Shown here: one piece after another, positions 19,839 through 47,625 of the stretch
How the letters are laid out: each line of letters begins with the position of its first letter
Position numbering within the stretch: the first letter of the stretch is position 1
DNA from: Rhodospirillaceae bacterium
Lineage (GTDB): Bacteria > Pseudomonadota > Alphaproteobacteria > GCA-2731375
Direction: 5' to 3'
Assembly: GCA_018667855.1 (NCBI GenBank)
Contig: JABIRL010000182.1
Coordinates: 5,503-69,502 of the forward strand
Length of the DNA stretch: 64,000 nucleotides
Position numbers and translations under genes: made by a program
Notes under the pieces: generated by a model
What the model saw: only the letters and a program-made list of their open reading frames with translations
What the model was told of the DNA's origin: nothing
The model's database searches: none

Positions 19839-21314
19839 CTATTGGACCAGGTGGGAGCTGGATGTAATCAGGATCGGCGTCGTGCCGGCGCTGTCACAGG
19901 ACGAATTCAGTGTGGAATTGCCGGTAAAATCAATGGTCTGGGCGATGACCTGCGTGCAGGTGGAACCGCCCGTGGTATTGCCGCCCGTGAACTCGATCGC
20001 TTCGTTGGGAAAATACAGCGCACCCGTGAAGTTGGTGGTGGAACCACCATTGAATTTGTTCTTTGTGGTCGAGGCCGCATCTTTATCCTGATAAAACACC
20101 ACGCCCGAATAATCACCGCTGGTCGGTGCCGCCAGAGTGACGATGGCGCCGCCATTGATGGTGACGGAACCCGGTGAATCGCCGTCACTGTCGGTCAAAA
20201 TGATGGTAACACCGGTACCTCCATCCACCTCCTTCAGGGTCGCGCCGCCATTGACCGAGAAATTGCCGTCGTCAATGACATAGGTGCCCGATCCCAATTC
20301 AACCGTACCGCCGGTAATTTCAAATTTACCGCAATAGGTGCCGGCGGAGAGTGTGTCGGTGCCGGAGGTATTCTTGTAATTCGTATCAATACAATTGCCT
20401 ACCGTCGGATCGGGCAAACCGCTGTACGGATCGGCGGTCGCCGAGGTGCCGGTCTCGGCCGCGCCGCAGGTCAGGTCGAACTCCGGCGATGCCGCGTCGG
20501 TACCGCCGACGATGCTGGCGCAATTTGCGTCCAGCGTGGCGCTGCCGCCCACTTCAAGGGCATCATCGTCATCGGAATTGGCGGCGACATCGCAACTATT
20601 GAAGGCCACGACGGCATTACCGCCAACGTCGATGGCGCCCTTGGCCGATGAACTGAGCGCCAGGGCGCAGGCGGTGCCGCCGCTGCCCGAACTGGTCGCC
20701 ACGGCGATGGTCTCTATATCGATGGAACTGAAACTGACAATGCCGCCGAAGGTCAAATCAAACGCATTGCCGTTGGATGCTGTTTTGCGAACCGTCACCC
20801 GGGCTGCGTTGACCGGCGTGCCGTTGGCGGTGAAAGCCCGGGTGTCTTCGTCCCAGTTTCCAACCTCCACATCCGCCGACACCAGGACATCACCATGGTC
20901 GGCCGCCGGTAGGTTCAATTCGGTGATGGCCAGGGCCCGGGATTCAGCCTCATCAGAGTCACTGGCGACCGAGGCCGCCGCCAAGGCGGCGGCATCCGCC
21001 TCCCCGCGCATCTGGGCCTGGGCCGAAAGAATGAAACCGACATCCACGGCCAGGCCGGCCAGCGCCAGCAACGGCATCACCAGCAATGCAAAGACCAGCG
21101 CCACGGCGCCGCCGCCTTCTTGACCAAATCGGCCTATCTTTCGCCACCACAAGGCGTTGGCGGCTTTTCCGCCGGCTGTTATCTGTCGTTTCACAATCAT
21201 CTGATCCATCCAAGGTTTTGACGCTTGTCCGTCCCTTAGCCCCCAGACATCAAAGAAGCCCAAATTTCGCGGTCGCACAATAATTCGTACATAGCCGCCA
21301 CGGCCCGACTGCAA
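19839..21314 (-). CDS. TadG-like (Flp-pilus-assembly TadE/G-domain) large pseudopilin-like protein
   Basis: The N-terminal segment GGGAVALVFALLVMPLLALAGLAVDVGF is the TadE/TadG N-terminal helix. The remainder is Gly/Thr/Ser/Asp-rich beta-rich sequence. Real start is probably internal (MIVKRQ ... or later). Confidence 0.55.
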   Translation of the reverse strand: MQSGRGGYVRIIVRPRNLGFFDVWGLRDGQASKPWMDQMIVKRQITAGGKAANALWWRKIGRFGQEGGGAVALVFALLVMPLLALAGLAVDVGFILSAQAQMRGEADAAALAAASVASDSDEAESRALAITELNLPAADHGDVLVSADVEVGNWDEDTRAFTANGTPVNAARVTVRKTASNGNAFDLTFGGIVSFSSIDIETIAVATSSGSGGTACALALSSSAKGAIDVGGNAVVAFNSCDVAANSDDDDALEVGGSATLDANCASIVGGTDAASPEFDLTCGAAETGTSATADPYSGLPDPTVGNCIDTNYKNTSGTDTLSAGTYCGKFEITGGTVELGSGTYVIDDGNFSVNGGATLKEVDGGTGVTIILTDSDGDSPGSVTINGGAIVTLAAPTSGDYSGVVFYQDKDAASTTKNKFNGGSTTNFTGALYFPNEAIEFTGGNTTGGSTCTQVIAQTIDFTGNSTLNSSCDSAGTTPILITSSSHLVQ

Positions 21315-21872
21315 CTATTTCTTACTGCTTTTCTTCTTGCTGTTATCCGAGGATTTCTTGCTGGTACACGATCCTTTCTTCTTTCCGCAGCTGGTGTTGT
21401 TTTCGCTTGATTCCTCTAGATACATACTCGCCGTCACCGACATGGTCTGATCTCCGACAAGTTCATCGGGATAGGCGTTGACCAACGCGGCATCCGCCAT
21501 GGGCGTAGATATTGATACCGTGATCGTGGCCGCGGATGTTCCCAGCCCGTCGGTGGCGGCGGTGACTGTAAACGTGCCCTTGGCATTGCCATCCGACAAA
21601 AGGGTCTCAGCCAAAGTTACGGTTTCTTCCGTGGACAGGGCCGCGCCCGTGACATAACCGCGGGCCGCCTCCCTAGCCGCATAAAACATCACATGGCGGG
21701 AGAACATGATGGAGGCGAATTCGACGATGCCGAAAAGAACGATCAGCATGATCGGGAAAATCAACGCGAATTCAATGGCGATGGCGCCGCGTTTATTGCC
21801 CCGTCGTCGGATAAACAGGCGTCTTTTGGATTTTTCCGTCATCCGGTCGGCCATCCCCATTTGAGCATCCAA
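21315..21872 (-). CDS. TadE-like pilus-assembly protein with a Lys/Ser-rich C-terminal tail
   Basis: GAIAIEFALIFPIMLIVLFGIVEFASIMF is the TadE N-terminal motif. The C-terminus is SCGKKKGSCTSKKSSDNSKKKSSKK. Confidence 0.65.
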   Translation of the reverse strand: MDAQMGMADRMTEKSKRRLFIRRRGNKRGAIAIEFALIFPIMLIVLFGIVEFASIMFSRHVMFYAAREAARGYVTGAALSTEETVTLAETLLSDGNAKGTFTVTAATDGLGTSAATITVSISTPMADAALVNAYPDELVGDQTMSVTASMYLEESSENNTSCGKKKGSCTSKKSSDNSKKKSSKK

Positions 21873-21961
21873 CTTATGAAACTATTCTAGCGTTAAGGAA
21901 CCCTTATGACAATTTCGATGCGGTTTGCTTCAACAAGTTTTGAAACCACCCGTAAATACGC

Positions 21962-22525
21962 TCAGGAGTTCGGCAGCGTTGTGTGAGACAGCCGGGTGGT
22001 ATCGAAACTTGGCAAATCCAATTGGCTTGGCAGTCCGGGAAGGTAGCGCACCGCCACGAAATTATAGGCCAGGCCGGTGACCTCGACCGTAATCAGAGGC
22101 GTTATCGTCTCGCCCGTACCGCTGATATCCAAACCGCTGTCCGTGTAGGTGACAATGACGTTGGCGGCGGTAATACGGGACGATACCTCCCTCATTGCCG
22201 ATACCACGGCATCGAAGGTGGCGGAATTATCCACCGTGACGCCATTGCAAGACACACCGCCCGAACCGCTGCAAGGTACCGGCGTCGATGCCAATTCGGC
22301 CAGATCGATAATCGGGTCCTCGGTCAGGGCCGTGCGCAGGCCGCGCCGGGTGGCCTCGGAAATCTTGTGGTAATCAAACATGATCAGCCCACCCTCCAGC
22401 GCGCCAAGCGTGAGGAGGAGGAGCGCCGGAAGGATCAGTCCGAATTCCACCGCCGTGGTGCCTTTGCGGCATTTGCGCCATCCCCCGGCGATCCGTTTCA
22501 GCTGTTTTATTCTGTCCCAAGCCAT
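21962..22525 (-). CDS. TadE-like pilus-assembly protein
   Basis: GTTAVEFGLILPALLLLTLGALEGGLIMF N-terminal TadE motif. Confidence 0.65.
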   Translation of the reverse strand: MAWDRIKQLKRIAGGWRKCRKGTTAVEFGLILPALLLLTLGALEGGLIMFDYHKISEATRRGLRTALTEDPIIDLAELASTPVPCSGSGGVSCNGVTVDNSATFDAVVSAMREVSSRITAANVIVTYTDSGLDISGTGETITPLITVEVTGLAYNFVAVRYLPGLPSQLDLPSFDTTRLSHTTLPNS

Positions 22526-22528
22526 GGA

Positions 22529-23029
22529 TCAATCTCCCACATAGGCCTGTTCATGGGCGGCATTCATGGTAATCGACATGAAGCCATAGGTATGTAGAAG
22601 CCCGCTGAACAGGGCCTTGTACGGCACCGACGCCACGACTTTTATGACCTCGTAGCTATTGCCGCCGGCGCTGTATGTTGATGTGGTTACCGCCAGGCTC
22701 GACGCGCCGTCGGACCAGCCCGGAACCACAAAATCGCCCGAGCCGTCCGCCGTGCCGGTCTTCACCAAATTTTCGATCGTGGCTTGCGAACCACCCGACA
22801 GCGGCAGGCTGGAGCGGGCCGCCAACATAGCGCCAACCCGTAGACTTTTGTCCAACTCGTTGGATTGATTGATGTAGTAGCCAAAATCAATGATGCCCAC
22901 CATGACCAGCGCCAGCAACGGCGCGAACAGGGCGAATTCCACCGCCGCGATGGCACGGCGACATTTCAACGCCGCGACCGCGTTGCCCGAAACCTTAGTC
23001 AATAAGCTGAACATTGACATGTACGTCAT
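22529..23029 (-). CDS. TadE-like pilus-assembly protein
   Basis: AIAAVEFALFAPLLALVMVGIIDFGYYINQ N-terminal TadE motif. Overlaps the upstream gene's stop by ~35 nt, so the start may be internal. Confidence 0.6.
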   Translation of the reverse strand: MTYMSMFSLLTKVSGNAVAALKCRRAIAAVEFALFAPLLALVMVGIIDFGYYINQSNELDKSLRVGAMLAARSSLPLSGGSQATIENLVKTGTADGSGDFVVPGWSDGASSLAVTTSTYSAGGNSYEVIKVVASVPYKALFSGLLHTYGFMSITMNAAHEQAYVGD

Positions 23030-24383
23030 CCGAATACTGTTGCAACAAGGGTCCGATAACTTCCGTGTAGGTATCCGCCAGGGTACCCGCGACTTCCTCG
23101 GTCAGGAAAACTTCCACGTAGCGGCCATAGGTCGGATAGTCGCCGCTGCCCTGTACGCCAAGCGCGGTACAATTCAATACGGCGATTTTCATGACCCGCC
23201 GTTTGATTTCCGATGAGGCCGTGGACGAAGGCACCCCCGCCGCCGGAATGGAAGCTCCGGACGGCGTCACGGTGGTATAGGTGCCGGGCTTGGTAATGCC
23301 GTCCGTGGGATAAATGGTTTTGTTGTCATACCGGTAAAACGTTTCACCCAGTTCATACAGAAACACCTGGTAACGGGTGTAGTTGACCAGATCGGCGGGT
23401 TCGGTTTCGCCGGAATGATTGGTCGACCAATAGGACACCGGGTCCCAATCACCGTTGCCGATGATGGTGCTGCCGGACATGTCGGAATCCCGGCCATAGC
23501 CCATGATATTTTGGGATGGATATTTCGGGTTCTTGGTACCGGAATCCATGCGCGCATTGATGCCGTTGATGGCCTGCTGGGTTTGCGAGCCGGGCGATGT
23601 GGTGACGATGGAGGTGTAACAAAGGCCCGGATCGTTAGCCAGGGCATCACCAACGCTGGCCGCACCGCAATTACCCGATGATGGGCACAGAAGGCCGAAA
23701 TTGCCCGGCGCCAGGGTGCCCCCGCCCGGGCCGGTCTTGGTCAATAACTGGCGGCCGGCATTGTCGGCATCCAGCAGATCGTCGCTAGGGTTGCCGCCCT
23801 CGGCCGGATTGCAGGCCATAAAGGGTGGAGCGGCGCAGACAATGGGCTCGATACCCGCCCGTGCCGTACCTTCGAGGGTAAATTGATCCGCCACCACGCC
23901 GCTGGCAATGGTCTCCAGCACCGGCGCCAGGAATATGGAAATTGTCCGGGGGACCAAGGTCACCGCGACCATAACGGCTTCATCATCGACCGTCGTGACC
24001 AGCGGCGTCGGGTCGGTATCGTCGTAAAACACTATGCTTTGCACGGTGAAGGCGCCGGATGGATCGGTCAGGGAGGTGGTATTGGTAATGGCGTTGGAAG
24101 CCGCCGCGGTGCCCCGGTTGATGGCGCCGGACTGGCCGTCAAGCTGTGCGGCGGCCGACAGGGCCGCGGAATCGGCAGCGTTTTGCATTTGCGAGCGAAG
24201 CACCACGACCCGGCCGATATCCAGGGCCAAGACACCGCCCGAAAGCGCCAGGGTTCCGGCGAAAGCGACATAAATAGCCGTCGCGCCGCTGCGGTCCTTC
24301 ATCATGGATGTCAGTGCCGACCAAATGCGCGCCACATATCCTTGACGTGGTTTCCTGCCCGGTATTACCTCGGCCCTCGTCAT
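22995..24383 (-). CDS. TadG-like pilus-assembly protein (large pseudopilin)
   Basis: N-terminal GATAIYVAFAGTLALSGGVLALDIGRVVVLRSQMQNAADSAALSAA matches the TadG family N-terminus. 462 aa, Gly/Thr/Ser-rich. Confidence 0.6.
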   Translation of the reverse strand: MTRAEVIPGRKPRQGYVARIWSALTSMMKDRSGATAIYVAFAGTLALSGGVLALDIGRVVVLRSQMQNAADSAALSAAAQLDGQSGAINRGTAAASNAITNTTSLTDPSGAFTVQSIVFYDDTDPTPLVTTVDDEAVMVAVTLVPRTISIFLAPVLETIASGVVADQFTLEGTARAGIEPIVCAAPPFMACNPAEGGNPSDDLLDADNAGRQLLTKTGPGGGTLAPGNFGLLCPSSGNCGAASVGDALANDPGLCYTSIVTTSPGSQTQQAINGINARMDSGTKNPKYPSQNIMGYGRDSDMSGSTIIGNGDWDPVSYWSTNHSGETEPADLVNYTRYQVFLYELGETFYRYDNKTIYPTDGITKPGTYTTVTPSGASIPAAGVPSSTASSEIKRRVMKIAVLNCTALGVQGSGDYPTYGRYVEVFLTEEVAGTLADTYTEVIGPLLQQYSDDVHVNVQLID

Positions 24384-24479: not shown

Positions 24480-24636
24480 CAAGGCACGCAAAATAGCCAC
24501 GCGAAGATGAATTATTCCATACCTTAAATTAAAATATTCTGAATATTCCAAAATAATTTGGAATTATTTTATTTTGTGGTTGATATTTTATTAATATCGA
24601 ACCGGAGAAAAACAACACTCTCCGTATACAGTTGAT
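24480..24636. promoter_or_regulatory. Strongly AT-rich island (promoter/regulatory region of the Tad-like operon) with a near-perfect palindrome TTCCAAAATAATTTGGAA (24546-24563) and an aatattc direct repeat
   Basis: About 75% A+T in a 62% GC genome. Lies directly upstream of the first gene of the minus-strand Tad-like operon. Confidence 0.4.
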
Positions 24637-43287: not shown

Positions 43288-43959
43288 ATGCCCATTCTGG
43301 CGTTTGATACTACGCAAGGCGCCTGTTCCGCCGCCATCGCCGATGACGGCAGGCTGTTATCCCAACGGAATGAAGCCATGCAACGGGGCCATGCGGAATA
43401 TCTGCTGCCCATGATCGAAGCGGTCCGGATCCAGGCCGGGATCATATATCAGGACCTGGATTTGATTGCGGTGACGGTAGGGCCGGGCACGTTTACCGGC
43501 GTGCGTGTGGGATTGGCCGCTGCCCGGGCCCTGGCCCTGGTCCACGACATCCCCGTATTAGGCATCGGCACACTGGAGTTGCTGGCGCAACCGGCGGTAA
43601 CAACGACCGATGGCGGCATTATTGCCGCAATCGATGCCAGGCGCGGAGAGCTTTATGTCCAGGCCTTCGACCGTACGGGCCAGCCCGTGACGGAAGCCAC
43701 GGCGGGGCCCGTCCCGAGCTTTGTACCGCCGTCCGGGCTGCTTCCCGGTCTGCTTGTCGGTACGGGAGCCTCCCTTTTGGGTGCGGCATTGCCAAACTGG
43801 CGTATCGAAGGCAGCATCGTCCAGCCCGATGCAGCCGTCCTGGCCCGTGCCGCCGAAGCATGGCGCCATCGGGCCTGCCACCGCCCTCCGTCACCGCTGT
43901 ATCTGCGATCGCCCGACGCCAAATTGCCGGCGCAAGCCGCTAAAGCAAAAACGAAATGA
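43288..43959 (+). CDS. tsaB: tRNA threonylcarbamoyladenosine biosynthesis protein TsaB (YeaZ)
   Basis: ILAFDTTQGACSAAIA ... AVTVGPGTFTGVRVGLAAARALA is the inactive Kae1/YgjD-paralogue signature. Confidence 0.8.
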   Translation: MPILAFDTTQGACSAAIADDGRLLSQRNEAMQRGHAEYLLPMIEAVRIQAGIIYQDLDLIAVTVGPGTFTGVRVGLAAARALALVHDIPVLGIGTLELLAQPAVTTTDGGIIAAIDARRGELYVQAFDRTGQPVTEATAGPVPSFVPPSGLLPGLLVGTGASLLGAALPNWRIEGSIVQPDAAVLARAAEAWRHRACHRPPSPLYLRSPDAKLPAQAAKAKTK

Positions 43960-43960
43960 T

Positions 43961-44431
43961 ATGAAGATTGAAATATTGCCTGCAGATCCCGGCCATTGCG
44001 CCTTGTTGGCGCGGCTGCACGGCTGTTGTTTTTCAACGCCCTGGGCCGAAGAGGCATTCATCCAGATGATGGCCATGCCTGGCGCATTTGCCCTGCTGGC
44101 CGGCCGGACAGAGGGTACGTGCCGGGAACCCATCGGTTTCGCCTTGGCACGAATGGGCGGCGGCGAAGCTGAAATTATCACTCTGGGCGTACTGCCCCTA
44201 TGGCGCGTTAGCGGAATCGGACAGCAGCTGGTGGCGGCCATCGCGGCGCAAGCATCGGCTTGTGGCGTCGAGGCCTTGTTGTTGGAAGTCGCCGAGGACA
44301 ACGCGGCCGCCCTGAAACTTTATCAATCAAATGGCTTCAGTTCCGTGGGGCGGCGCAAGAACTACTATCAAACCGCGGATTCCGGCAGGCATGATGCCAT
44401 CGTCATGCGACGGGCGCTGGTAGCGGATTAA
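43961..44431 (+). CDS. rimI: Ribosomal-protein-alanine N-acetyltransferase (GNAT)
   Basis: GNAT motif ITLGVLPLWRVSGIGQQLV. Conserved position directly after tsaB (1-nt gap). Confidence 0.7.
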   Translation: MKIEILPADPGHCALLARLHGCCFSTPWAEEAFIQMMAMPGAFALLAGRTEGTCREPIGFALARMGGGEAEIITLGVLPLWRVSGIGQQLVAAIAAQASACGVEALLLEVAEDNAAALKLYQSNGFSSVGRRKNYYQTADSGRHDAIVMRRALVAD

Positions 44432-44680
44432 ACTTTTTCAATAATTAAAATCTGCGGCCCATCAACCTCGTTTTCGTTCTCCGGCCCCAAGGATATGATC
44501 CGATGGCCATGTTCGCGTACCGAACGAGGGACGTTCTGCAAAGGTTCGGCACCCTGTAATCTGACGGTAGCTCGATCCCCGGATGACATCTTTTCAATCA
44601 ATAACTTCGTGCGAACAAAGGTCATCGGACAAATTTGGTCTGTTATATCTAAATAATGTTCAAATGATCCGGTTTTCATT
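44428..44680 (-). CDS. TusA-like sulfurtransferase (SirA/YedF/YeeD family)
   Basis: LDITDQICPMTFVRTKLLIEKM carries the CPxP active-site motif of TusA-family proteins. Start is probably MKTGSF. Confidence 0.6.
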
Positions 44681-44822
44681 GTCAAATTCCAAATACTCGA
44701 GATAACGTTCCGGGAATTTTGTTTTCCCATTGCAAAAATATAGAATTATTCCTAAAATAAGTTCGGGAATATAAAATTTGTGCATTTCAAAACATTAGAA
44801 CTTACTTCAAGGAGCCGATTAC

Positions 44823-45245
44823 ATGGCTGAACAAGGCACCGATCTTAGCGAACTATTGACATTGACTGCGGATATAGTTGCATCACATGTTTCAAATAAT
44901 GGTGTTCCGGTCAGTGAACTGCCACAATTGATTCAGCAGGTTTACGCGACATTGGCTGAACTTGGCAAGGAAGCCGCACCGGCGGCGGAAAAACCCCAGC
45001 CGGCAGTGCCGATCCGCAAATCCATAACGCCGGACTATATTATCTGTCTGGAAGACGGCAAGAAACTGAAAATGCTGAAACGGCACCTGAAAACCGCCTA
45101 CGACATGACTCCCGATCAATACCGTGACCGTTGGGGTCTGGCTTCGGACTATCCGATGGTCGCGCCGAATTATGCCGAACAGCGCCGGGATTTGGCCAAG
45201 AAGATTGGTTTGGGAACATCACGAAGCCGCCGCAGCGCGGTTTAG
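44823..45245 (+). CDS. MucR/Ros-family transcriptional regulator; zinc-ligand positions are C-D-H-Y instead of C-C-H-H
   Basis: ITPDYIICLEDGKKLKMLKRHLKTAYDMTPDQYRDRWGLASDYPMVAPNYAEQRRDLAKKIGLG is collinear with Ros/MucR ([31 protein letters not shown]). AT-rich promoter upstream. Confidence 0.8.
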   Translation: MAEQGTDLSELLTLTADIVASHVSNNGVPVSELPQLIQQVYATLAELGKEAAPAAEKPQPAVPIRKSITPDYIICLEDGKKLKMLKRHLKTAYDMTPDQYRDRWGLASDYPMVAPNYAEQRRDLAKKIGLGTSRSRRSAV

Positions 45246-45303
45246 GTATTTAATGGCCGCGAACCTTGGGGTCCCGGGCTCACAGCTTGGAGCATAACAA
45301 CGG

Positions 45304-45762
45304 ATGCTAGCCAAAATCGAACGGCTTTGCATGGAACGCGGTTTGCGCATGACCGGGCAACGCCGCGTGGTGGCCCGGGTACTTTCGGAAGCCGATGATC
45401 ATCCCGACGCCGAGGAAATCTATCGTCGGGGCAGTATGCTGGATGCTAAAATTTCCATCGCCACGGTCTACCGCACCCTGCGTATATTCGAAGAAGCCGG
45501 CATTCTGCAGCGGCTGGAATTCGGCGATGGGCGGGCCCGTTTCGAAATTGCCGAGAGCGAGCATCATGACCATTTGATCGACACCGCCAGCGGTAAGGTC
45601 ATTGAGTTCCAGGATGCCGAGCTAGAAGCTTTGCAAGATAAAATAGCGGCTAATTTAGGCTATCGTCTTATCGGCCATCGAATGGAACTATATGGCGTGC
45701 CATTGCAGGACACATCGCCATCCGACGATAACCTTGAAGACGATAAAAACAACGACCGCTAG
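45304..45762 (+). CDS. Fur-family metalloregulator (Fur/Mur/Irr-like), lacks C-terminal CxxC, has an acidic tail
   Basis: DHPDAEEIY ... ATVYRTLRIFEEAGIL ... HHDHLID match the Fur DNA-binding and metal-site motifs. Confidence 0.8.
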   Translation: MLAKIERLCMERGLRMTGQRRVVARVLSEADDHPDAEEIYRRGSMLDAKISIATVYRTLRIFEEAGILQRLEFGDGRARFEIAESEHHDHLIDTASGKVIEFQDAELEALQDKIAANLGYRLIGHRMELYGVPLQDTSPSDDNLEDDKNNDR

Positions 45763-46134
45763 TACGCATTTCCTATACTGGCCGTTGTCTTTTTCTCCGA
45801 TTAGCGAATTTGTGATATTTCAAACCGACGCCGGGCCAAATATTTCCCGGGGACCGGAATTTTGACTTATCCGGGTGCCGCGGCAAACGACTTGACTGCG
45901 GTCTGACTTCTTGACTATTTGCACCGGATTGATAGTGTTTTCCCCGTGGACATAGTGTGGAGCGCGATAAGGGAATGAACCATAATCGCCAGTGCCGGGA
46001 TTTTATCCCCGCGCGCGAGAGCGACGGCAATAGCAGGCACTTGACGGTACGATCTGCAGGAAGATCGGCAATGAGGTGTCAACCCGCCCATTTGGATTCC
46101 AACCAGGCCAATAATCTGGCCAACAATCCGGACA

Positions 46135-47625
46135 GTGGCGGCGGCGATTGCAAACGCGCATGGTTTCCCTTGCCCCGAATATTCCTTGCCTAAGAAATTT
46201 TTTATCCGCACCTATGGGTGCCAGATGAATGTCTATGATACAGCCCGCATGGCGGATGTGCTGGCACCGCTCGGCTATAGCGCCGCCGACGGGCCGGAGG
46301 ACGCCGATATGGTTATCCTCAATACCTGTCACATTCGCGAAAAGGCGGCCGAAAAAGTCTATTCCGAACTCGGCCGCCTGCGGCAGATGAAAGAGCAGCG
46401 GATGGCCGATGAGCCCGATCGCGCCCCGCCTGTCCTTGCCGTGGCGGGATGCGTGGCCCAGGCCGAAGGTGCGGAAATGCTGGCCAGGGCGCCATTTCTG
46501 GATATCGTGTTCGGACCGCAGACCTATCACCGTCTGCCTGAGATGATCGCCCGGGTAGAGCGGGCGGCCGGCAATAACAAAGGAAAGAGTGGCCGGGGCG
46601 CCGGAATTCTGGATACGGAGTTCCCGGCGGAGGCGAAATTCGATCATCTGCCCAAAGTCAGCCCCGGCGCCCGGGACGGCAAGGGAACAATGGCGGGTTG
46701 CACGGCGTTTTTGACCATTCAGGAAGGTTGCGACAAATTCTGCACCTTCTGTGTCGTACCCTATACACGCGGCGTGGAATTCTCCCGACCCGGTCAGGCG
46801 GTGCTGGAAGAATGCCGGCAACTGGTTTCCAGCGGTGTGCGGGAAGTCACCCTATTGGGCCAGAACGTCAACGCCTATCACGGCACCGGCCCCGACGGAG
46901 ATAACTGGGACCTGGCGGAATTGATTGCCCGGCTGGCCGGGATCGACGGCTTGGCGCGGATTCGTTACACCACCTCCCATCCCCGCGATATCAACGATCG
47001 GCTATTTGACATTCACGGCCACTGCGAAAAGCTGATGCCGTATCTGCATTTACCGGCGCAGTCCGGTTCGGACCGAATTCTGGCGGCCATGAACCGCGGC
47101 TATACGGCGGCTGATTATCAAGCCGCCGTTGCCCGGTTACGCCGAATCCGGCCGGATATTGCCTTATCCGGTGATTTCATCGTGGGATTTCCCGGCGAGA
47201 GCGAGGCTGATTTCGAGGCCACCATGGAACTGGTGCGCGCCGTGAAATACGCCCAAGCCTATTCCTTTAAATACAGCCCCCGTCCGGGCACGCCGGCGGC
47301 GTTGCTGGAAGATCAGGTGCCCGACGAAATGCGGTCCGAGCGATTGCAGCGGCTGCAAGCCCTGTTGGATGACCAGCAGCAGGCCTTCAACCGGCAAATG
47401 GTCGGCAAACGGCTGCCTTTATTGTTGGATCGCGGCGGCCGGCGGCCGGGCCAGTTGGTTGGCCGCAGTCCCTATATGCAGGCCGTGCACCTTGATGCAT
47501 CGGTGGAATTGCTAGGGCGAATGGTCGAAGTGGAAATCACGGCGGCCCACGCCAACAGTCTGGCGGGGCAATTGGTCGAACCTGCCCTCCACCGGAACCC
47601 GCGTCAGTTGGAGCGGGTGAGGTGA
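46135..47625 (+). CDS. miaB: tRNA-2-methylthio-N6-dimethylallyladenosine synthase (radical SAM methylthiotransferase)
   Basis: [16 protein letters not shown] (UPF0004 Cys cluster), [11 protein letters not shown] radical-SAM motif and a C-terminal TRAM domain. Start is a GTG at 46135 or a TTG at 46186. Confidence 0.9.

Follow-up and report, generated by a model that had tools for sequence, protein, structure and literature searches.

Does a member of the MucR/Ros family still hold a structural zinc ion when positions that carry Cys and a His-His pair in Agrobacterium Ros are occupied by Asp and Ala-Tyr? This question is raised by an ORF within a stretch of 64,000 nucleotides (64 kb) from an alphaproteobacterium, which was analyzed as a whole and is referred to here as the window. 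The preliminary description of the ORF predicted a zinc-independent variant of the prokaryotic zinc finger. In our best overall reading, to which we assign a probability of about 0.68, the product would be a core H-NS-like MucR which oligomerizes, binds AT-rich DNA and most likely retains structural zinc. The positions of all features discussed are listed in Table 1.

Table 1. Features of the mucR locus, given in positions of the window.
Feature	Position	Strand	Details
TusA-like gene	44428..44679	-	83 aa, divergent, shares the AT-rich intergenic region; Pfam TusA, E = 4.6e-14; 44% GC
AT-rich divergent intergenic region	44680..44822	.	143 bp, 31.5% GC; candidate site for self-binding by MucR
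Predicted sigma-70-like promoter	44730..44758	+	-35 TTGCAA (44730-44735), 17-bp spacer, -10 TAAAAT (44753-44758); consensus scan
Ribosome-binding site AAGGAG	44809-44814	+	8 nt 5' of the mucR ATG; read from sequence
mucR/ros-family gene	44823..45245	+	stop codon included; ATG start, 140 aa; ORF list, Pfam, homologs
N-terminal two-helix oligomerization domain (predicted)	44844..44966	+	approximately residues 8-48; Leu33, Leu36, Ile37 and Val40 conserved
C-terminal DNA-binding domain	44985..45227	+	residues 55-135; by sequence a homolog of the Ros87 prokaryotic zinc-finger fold (beta-beta-beta-alpha-alpha)
Cys75-Leu-Glu-Asp78 codons	45045..45056	+	metal-ligand positions 1 (TGT, 45045) and 2 (GAC, 45054); aligned to Ros87 Cys24/Cys27
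His88 to Ala92-Tyr93 codons	45084..45101	+	third ligand (CAC, 45084), Ala92 (GCC, 45096), Tyr93 (TAC, 45099); aligned to Ros87 His37, His41, His42
C-terminal basic arm	45198..45236	+	KKIGLGTSRSRRS; read from sequence
Fur-family regulator gene	45304..45762	+	58 bp 3' of mucR; Pfam FUR, E = 6.3e-39

The affiliation to the family, which had been proposed from the sequence, was borne out over the full length of the protein. Residues 11-131 align with positions 2-123 of the 123-position Pfam profile ROS_MUCR (PF05443, E = 2.5e-53) with a score of 179.8 bits at a cut-off of 25.4, and more than 8000 homologs were found, the nearest being 96% identical. A phmmer search against the PDB placed residues 55-135 without any gap on positions 4-84 of the Ros87 chain of Agrobacterium tumefaciens (2JSP_A, E = 7.5e-27) with 46 of 81 identical residues (57%), and no solved structure other than Ros87 was matched in this search. 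AlphaFold2 models of the full-length protein, computed with 45 homologs, and of the domain alone, computed with 99, both had a pLDDT of about 58. At this low confidence the helices were reproduced and the strand region with the Cys75/Asp78 hairpin was not resolved, so that the models lend no structural support and are uninformative about the metal geometry; the alignments were shallow because all homologs used were at least 70% identical.

For the comparison of orthologs one genome per GTDB species was scanned, which resulted in 80 syntenic loci (L001-L080). The mucR gene is present in all of them, and most loci keep the order tsaB, rimI, mucR, fur and, further downstream, miaB, with a small, optional tusA-like gene transcribed in the opposite direction between rimI and mucR; in the window this arrangement extends over positions 43288-47625. 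The individual neighbors were detected with different frequency (tsaB in 61 loci, rimI in 70, the tusA-like gene in 31, fur adjoining mucR in 61 and miaB in 62). The genome titles cover several alphaproteobacterial groups, including Azospirillum, Magnetospirillum, Skermanella, Niveispirillum, Roseicella and Dankookia as well as Sphingomonas, Novosphingobium, Croceicoccus, Kordiimonas, Sneathiella and Kiloniellales. The nearest locus derives from an alphaproteobacterial metagenome-assembled genome of the Eastern Tropical North Pacific, in which MucR is 96% identical and the products of the neighboring genes only 53-80%, from which it follows that the window belongs to a related marine alphaproteobacterium that is uncultured. 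Metagenomic contigs with the closest MucR proteins show the same gene order according to their Pfam labels. No second copy of MucR was found within the 64-kb window. In its lineage the gene is the one core mucR, inherited vertically and without the character of an accessory paralog. Its product is the usual chromosomal MucR/Ros protein, a putative DNA silencer and an ordinary representative of a family that has been studied well.

Some features of the neighboring genes may be added. The tusA-like gene, which was called with 83-86 aa in relatives, overlaps the stop of rimI by 4 nt, end to end, and its product gives weak matches to the NCBIfam models YedF and TsuB. In the metagenomic contigs L083 and L088 rimI was called as two ORFs of 87 and 55 aa (positions 2134-2588) instead of one gene of 153 aa, which is probably due to a frameshift or an assembly error of these contigs. 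The gap of 372 bp between fur and miaB (45763-46134) coincides with an AT-rich patch (39% GC in 45725-45824, four AAATA cores in 45812-45961), and in some relatives (L086, L088) an ORF of 61 aa is called in it. A scan of positions 44000-46300 against Rfam up to an E-value of 1 returned no RNA elements.

In the ungapped alignment Cys75, Asp78, His88, Ala92 and Tyr93 stand opposite Cys24, Cys27, His37, His41 and His42 of Ros87, i.e., positions 79, 82, 92, 96 and 97 of full-length Ros. The substitutions originally pointed out, CLEDG for CLECG and HLKTAY for HLTTHH, were thereby reproduced. A fourth His is missing at both position 92 and position 93, and His88 is the sole His of the DNA-binding domain. 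The protein consequently differs from the Cys2His2 site of Ros, which has His at positions 96 and 97, and shares the first three ligands but not the fourth His with the CysAspHis2 site of the Brucella abortus MucR and Ml1-Ml3 type. Its layout is Cys-Asp-His-x-Tyr as in MucR2 and MucR3 of Sinorhizobium meliloti, whose Lys-Tyr was placed opposite Ala-Tyr by tblastn. The Ser which replaces the first Cys in the zinc-free proteins of the Ml4/Ml5 type is not found here, Cys75 being kept.

Cys75, Asp78, His88 and Tyr93 are invariant in all 80 syntenic orthologs. Position 92 is occupied by Ala in 45 of them, by His in 17, by Ser in 12, by Arg in five and by Lys in one, and position 94 is variable, too. 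This comparison disposes of the suspicion that Asp and Ala-Tyr are sequencing or assembly errors or belong to a decaying paralog: the four residues recur in independent assemblies, GAC is two substitutions away from TGC, and the gene presents itself as an intact ORF with ribosome-binding site, conserved promoter and full-length Pfam match which is the sole copy in the window. A sequencing error at the Asp codon is refuted by the orthologs and, as nothing in the data was found to support an error or a pseudogene, we consider this explanation to be practically without a chance. The invariance of the four positions next to the variable positions 92 and 94 rather indicates that the site is under selection.

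Beyond the syntenic orthologs, the same arrangement turned out to be widespread. Among the 120 closest database proteins Cys75 is kept in 119, and 116 combine the Cys and the His with the absence of His at positions 92 and 93. For a wider view, the best 150 representatives of clusters with 50% identity were taken from 7,845 family matches, a sample which leans towards proteins resembling the query. The same state, with no His at the fourth position, is found in 83 of these 150 representatives, and only 13 carry Cys at the second position, all of them with His at position 93 and hence with a true Cys2His2 site. Despite its leaning, this survey is in line with the literature, according to which Asp occupies the second ligand position in the majority of Ros homologs (PMC12948726). 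The designation of the site as non-canonical, as given in the preliminary description, is thus correct only relative to Agrobacterium Ros, since Cys-Asp-His-x-Tyr is the commonest state among the homologs sampled.

The prediction of zinc-independence was derived from Ros homologs of Mesorhizobium loti, and this precedent was misapplied. The zinc-free proteins Ml4 and Ml5 are marked by the exchange of the first Cys for Ser (PMC11662661; PMC12948726). The Asp of the second position ligates zinc in Ml1-Ml3 and demonstrably does so in B. abortus MucR (PMC9779718; PMC11662661). Ml1-Ml3 require zinc, which is bound in a CysAspHis2 site (PMC9779718; PMC5693944), and in the domain of B. abortus MucR zinc is ligated by Cys80, Asp83, His93 and His97, the latter beside Tyr98, with a Kd of approximately 1.2e-8 M (PMC11662661). 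More directly comparable are S. meliloti MucR2 (SMa1705) and MucR3 (SMa0748), which keep Cys-Asp-His and have Lys-Tyr for His-His; the Cys-Asp-His-x-Tyr site was described for them in a Biomolecules paper of 2026 and called “peculiar” (PMC13297338). The DNA-binding domain of MucR2 binds zinc according to NMR, including the 15N shifts of His114, and in an AlphaFold3 model Tyr119 is the fourth ligand, a proposal which still needs proof according to the authors (PMC13297338). For the Lys beside this Tyr a role in shielding the zinc was suggested, and a K118A/Y119A mutant was unfolded (PMC13297338).

Since MucR2, the closest tested relative, is a zinc-bound protein, MucR of the window probably binds zinc as well. 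Furthermore, that Cys, Asp and His are so strictly conserved while the domain contains no other His argues for a metal site which is still in use. On these grounds we consider retention of structural zinc by the DNA-binding domain to be probable, although only three good protein ligands are left and Ala occupies the position of the shielding Lys of MucR2, both of which count against it. Ala, Ser or Arg occur naturally in its place (position 92), which suggests that this Lys is not generally required. The invariance of Tyr93 may reflect packing instead of ligation, because His-Tyr proteins like B. abortus MucR, whose ligand is His97, have this Tyr as well.

Zinc-independence is accordingly the less likely outcome. 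In such a protein hydrogen bonds and hydrophobic packing, including that of Tyr93, would replace the metal as in Ml4 and Ml5; these, too, carry Asp in the second ligand position and are devoid of a fourth His (PMC12948726). It is further known that single substitutions switch members of the family between the zinc-bound and the zinc-free state (PMC9779718), and neither His of the His96/His97 pair of Ros is present in the query, whose domain has His88 as its only His. However, the documented zinc-free proteins begin with Ser at the position where Cys75 is kept in 80 of 80 orthologs and 119 of 120 close homologs, a defunct site would not be expected to retain Cys, Asp and His so strictly, and S. 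meliloti MucR2 binds zinc with the same layout (PMC13297338). The Ser-first representatives of our survey (among them P0216, P0222, P0227, P0228 and P0231), which may or may not include Ml4 and Ml5 themselves, mostly show a deletion of one residue between the third-ligand His and the position of Tyr93 as well as Lys, Arg or Leu at the latter; both changes are missing from the query. Taken together, a zinc-free fold appears unlikely, though it is the most probable of the alternatives weighed here.

Two groups in the survey should be mentioned on their own account. The combination of the deletion with Lys, Arg or Leu in the Ser-first representatives could serve as a signature of zinc-free family members. 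Moreover, the family survey (P0001-P0270) contains a subclass in which His88 is replaced by Tyr and Tyr93 by Phe in about half of the proteins (13 Tyr/Phe versus 12 Tyr/Tyr). Cys and Asp being their only remaining ligands, such proteins are better candidates for a zinc-free state with a kept Cys than the query.

A wider claim can be advanced only tentatively: the core MucR of the Alphaproteobacteria might have had Cys-Asp-His plus Tyr without a fourth His as its ancestral metal site, which would also be its most common one, with zinc held via a Tyr oxygen or by three residues plus water, and the Cys2His2 site of Ros a derived exception in rhizobia. We are rather doubtful that this holds as a whole. 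To our knowledge, either of these two modes of holding zinc would be without structural precedent among zinc fingers.

The gene downstream of mucR brings in a further alternative. The best NCBIfam matches of its product are Fur models, with scores under their cut-offs. A zinc-specific link through this neighbor was rejected, the regulator looking like Fur and not like Zur. Since the gap of 58 bp contains no predicted terminator-like site, mucR and fur may be co-transcribed as an operon. One could then imagine a labile or alternative metal site, e.g., for iron or for weakly bound, exchangeable zinc, through which folding and DNA binding of MucR respond to the metal supply; the adjacency of mucR and fur in 61 of 80 loci, with the short, terminator-free gap found here, would suit this idea. 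Ligand sets of Tyr, His and Asp are typical of iron sites, and the residues present would fit iron on such general bioinorganic grounds. The synteny on which the idea draws may, however, be historical rather than functional as it also includes tsaB, rimI and miaB; the same arrangement occurs in His-Tyr orthologs with an ordinary CysAspHis2 site. In addition, the relatives that bind metal bind zinc tightly (PMC11662661; PMC13297338). We regard a labile site as improbable, far more so than a zinc-free fold.

The AT-rich promoter which had been noticed ahead of the gene was confirmed: the GC content upstream is 26-31.5%, and a predicted sigma-70-like promoter lies inside. Ranked by AT-richness, positions 44715-44814 (26% GC) come second among the 100-bp stretches of the window, which has 60% GC overall, and the stretch ranking third already has 36%. 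For the 100 bp directly preceding the start codon (44723-44822) the value is 29% GC, and only 0.2% of all 100-bp segments are as AT-rich. Within the intergenic region there are 12 T-A steps and three AAATA cores (44691, 44736, 44755). AT-richness at this place is common to the orthologous loci, whose 150 bp upstream of mucR have a mean of 44% GC versus 63% for the whole locus. TTGC and, at the aligned position, a TAnnAT hexamer are shared by the four most closely related sequences that were aligned, that of the window included, and a GAGG/GGAG ribosome-binding core is retained in the closer mucR orthologs.

AAATA is the minimal site of the Ml proteins as well as of B. abortus MucR (PMC5693944). 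B. abortus MucR binds its own promoter (PMC5881533), and self-repression by MucR was reported in rhizobia (PMC7710501); in Caulobacter, mucR1/2 are reported to regulate themselves positively and not negatively (PMC4083442). Because the region upstream is AT-rich and carries a conserved sigma-70-like promoter, binding of MucR to its own promoter and autoregulation of either sign appear plausible from the sequence.

The maximum of AT-richness in the window, measured over 100 bp, is located elsewhere, at 24504-24603. These positions have 20% GC, with seven AAATA/TATTT cores within 150 bp, and lie directly upstream of TadG/TadE/TadE/TadG-like genes of an Flp pilus (19839-24383, minus strand). As Caulobacter MucR1/2 repress the pilA promoter (PMC4083442), this region is a plausible candidate for a promoter silenced by MucR. 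The 10-mer GAATTATTCC, which is common to the two spots richest in AT (at 24509 and 44743), was considered as a specific operator and rejected as a chance event: with at most one mismatch it has six matches, 18 of 100 shuffled sequences reach this number, and it is not conserved in the orthologous promoters.

At the N-terminus, Leu33, Leu36, Ile37 and Val40 are conserved in the 80 orthologs, which corresponds at the sequence level to the oligomerization residues of the family. AlphaFold2 predicted helices at residues 4-24 and 30-48 with moderate confidence. Leu33, Leu36 and Ile37 in the motif ELPQLIQQV presumably match Leu36, Leu39 and Ile40 of B. abortus MucR, as judged by a comparison of the motifs. 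In B. abortus MucR the latter three residues are crucial for oligomerization (PMC11662661). At the opposite end K126, K127, G129, L130 and G131 are invariant in the close homologs. The preconditions of an H-NS-like silencer are hence present, i.e., the basic C-terminal arm, the oligomerization residues and the AT-rich candidate sites at 44680-44822 and 24504-24603, and we infer that the protein is a classical oligomerizing, DNA-bridging, H-NS-like MucR and not a monomer of the MucR2/3 type.

A further residue of the N-terminal region, His22 (codon 44886-44888), is invariant in all 200 close homologs and syntenic orthologs. In the 150 wider representatives its position is occupied by Tyr (72), His (53) or Phe (15) without correlation to residue 92. 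The corresponding Tyr25 of B. abortus MucR is needed for N-terminal packing. His22 was also considered as a substitute for the fourth ligand and rejected, as it co-occurs equally with proteins that have His92.

From these elements the following mode of action can be proposed for MucR of the window, which would be the core, vertically inherited nucleoid-associated regulator of an uncultured marine alphaproteobacterium. Via Leu33, Leu36, Ile37 and Val40 the N-terminal two-helix domain would form higher-order, probably circular, oligomers, and a flexible linker would join it to the C-terminal domain of the Ros87 type. In the latter, Zn(II) would be held by Cys75, Asp78 and His88, and the fourth place would be taken by the phenolate or hydroxyl group of Tyr93 or by water. 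The oligomer is expected to bridge or coat AT-rich DNA and mostly to repress transcription, with its own AT-rich promoter and the region of 20% GC ahead of the Tad pilus genes as likely targets.

For the annotation of the genome these results carry little weight, since the ORF is the expected single-copy mucR. Their value for the field of prokaryotic zinc fingers is modest and lies in the finding that a site termed “peculiar” in 2026 is the commonest form among the homologs sampled. With the Tyr fixed and the preceding residue free to be Ala, His, Ser, Arg or Lys, the Ala-Tyr orthologs represent natural test cases, and those of the culturable genera Azospirillum, Magnetospirillum and Skermanella could reveal whether Tyr ligates zinc and whether the neighboring Lys is needed. 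If the ancestral reading of the Cys-Asp-His-Tyr site were true, the Ala-Tyr variants would show that the shielding Lys of MucR2 is dispensable.

Among the characterized systems, MucR2 and MucR3 of S. meliloti are closest in the metal site: the pSymA-encoded proteins SMa1705 and SMa0748 have 57% and 54% of approximately 125 residues in common with the query (tblastn), and their CLEDGK...KRHL..KY corresponds to CLEDGK...KRHLKTAY. Apart from the Ala before the Tyr, where theirs is Lys, the query differs by Val40 in the oligomerization helix, in place of which the monomeric or weakly oligomeric, non-bridging S. meliloti proteins have Thr (PMC13297338), and by the lack of the N-terminal extension of about 20 residues found in MucR2. 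Moreover, it is encoded by a chromosomal gene of the core synteny, whereas MucR2 and MucR3 are paralogs on the megaplasmid pSymA. With B. abortus MucR, an H-NS-like binder of AT-rich DNA whose zinc-binding domain has been shown, the query, which is known from its sequence, shares the succession of N-terminal oligomerization domain, linker and DNA-binding domain as well as the equivalents of Cys80, Asp83 and His93, and Tyr98 corresponds to Tyr93. The two differ at the fourth ligand, His97 versus Ala92, and in the N-terminal packing core, where Tyr25 is matched by His22. A. tumefaciens Ros, aligned above as Ros87, is set apart by its Cys2His2 site (Cys79, Cys82, His92, His96/97), in which Asp takes the place of the second Cys and Ala-Tyr that of His96-His97 in the query. 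Ml4 and Ml5 of M. loti belong to the same family, bind AT-rich DNA and resemble the query in the Asp and in the missing fourth His; they differ from it at the very first ligand, which is Ser in these proteins and Cys75 in MucR of the window.
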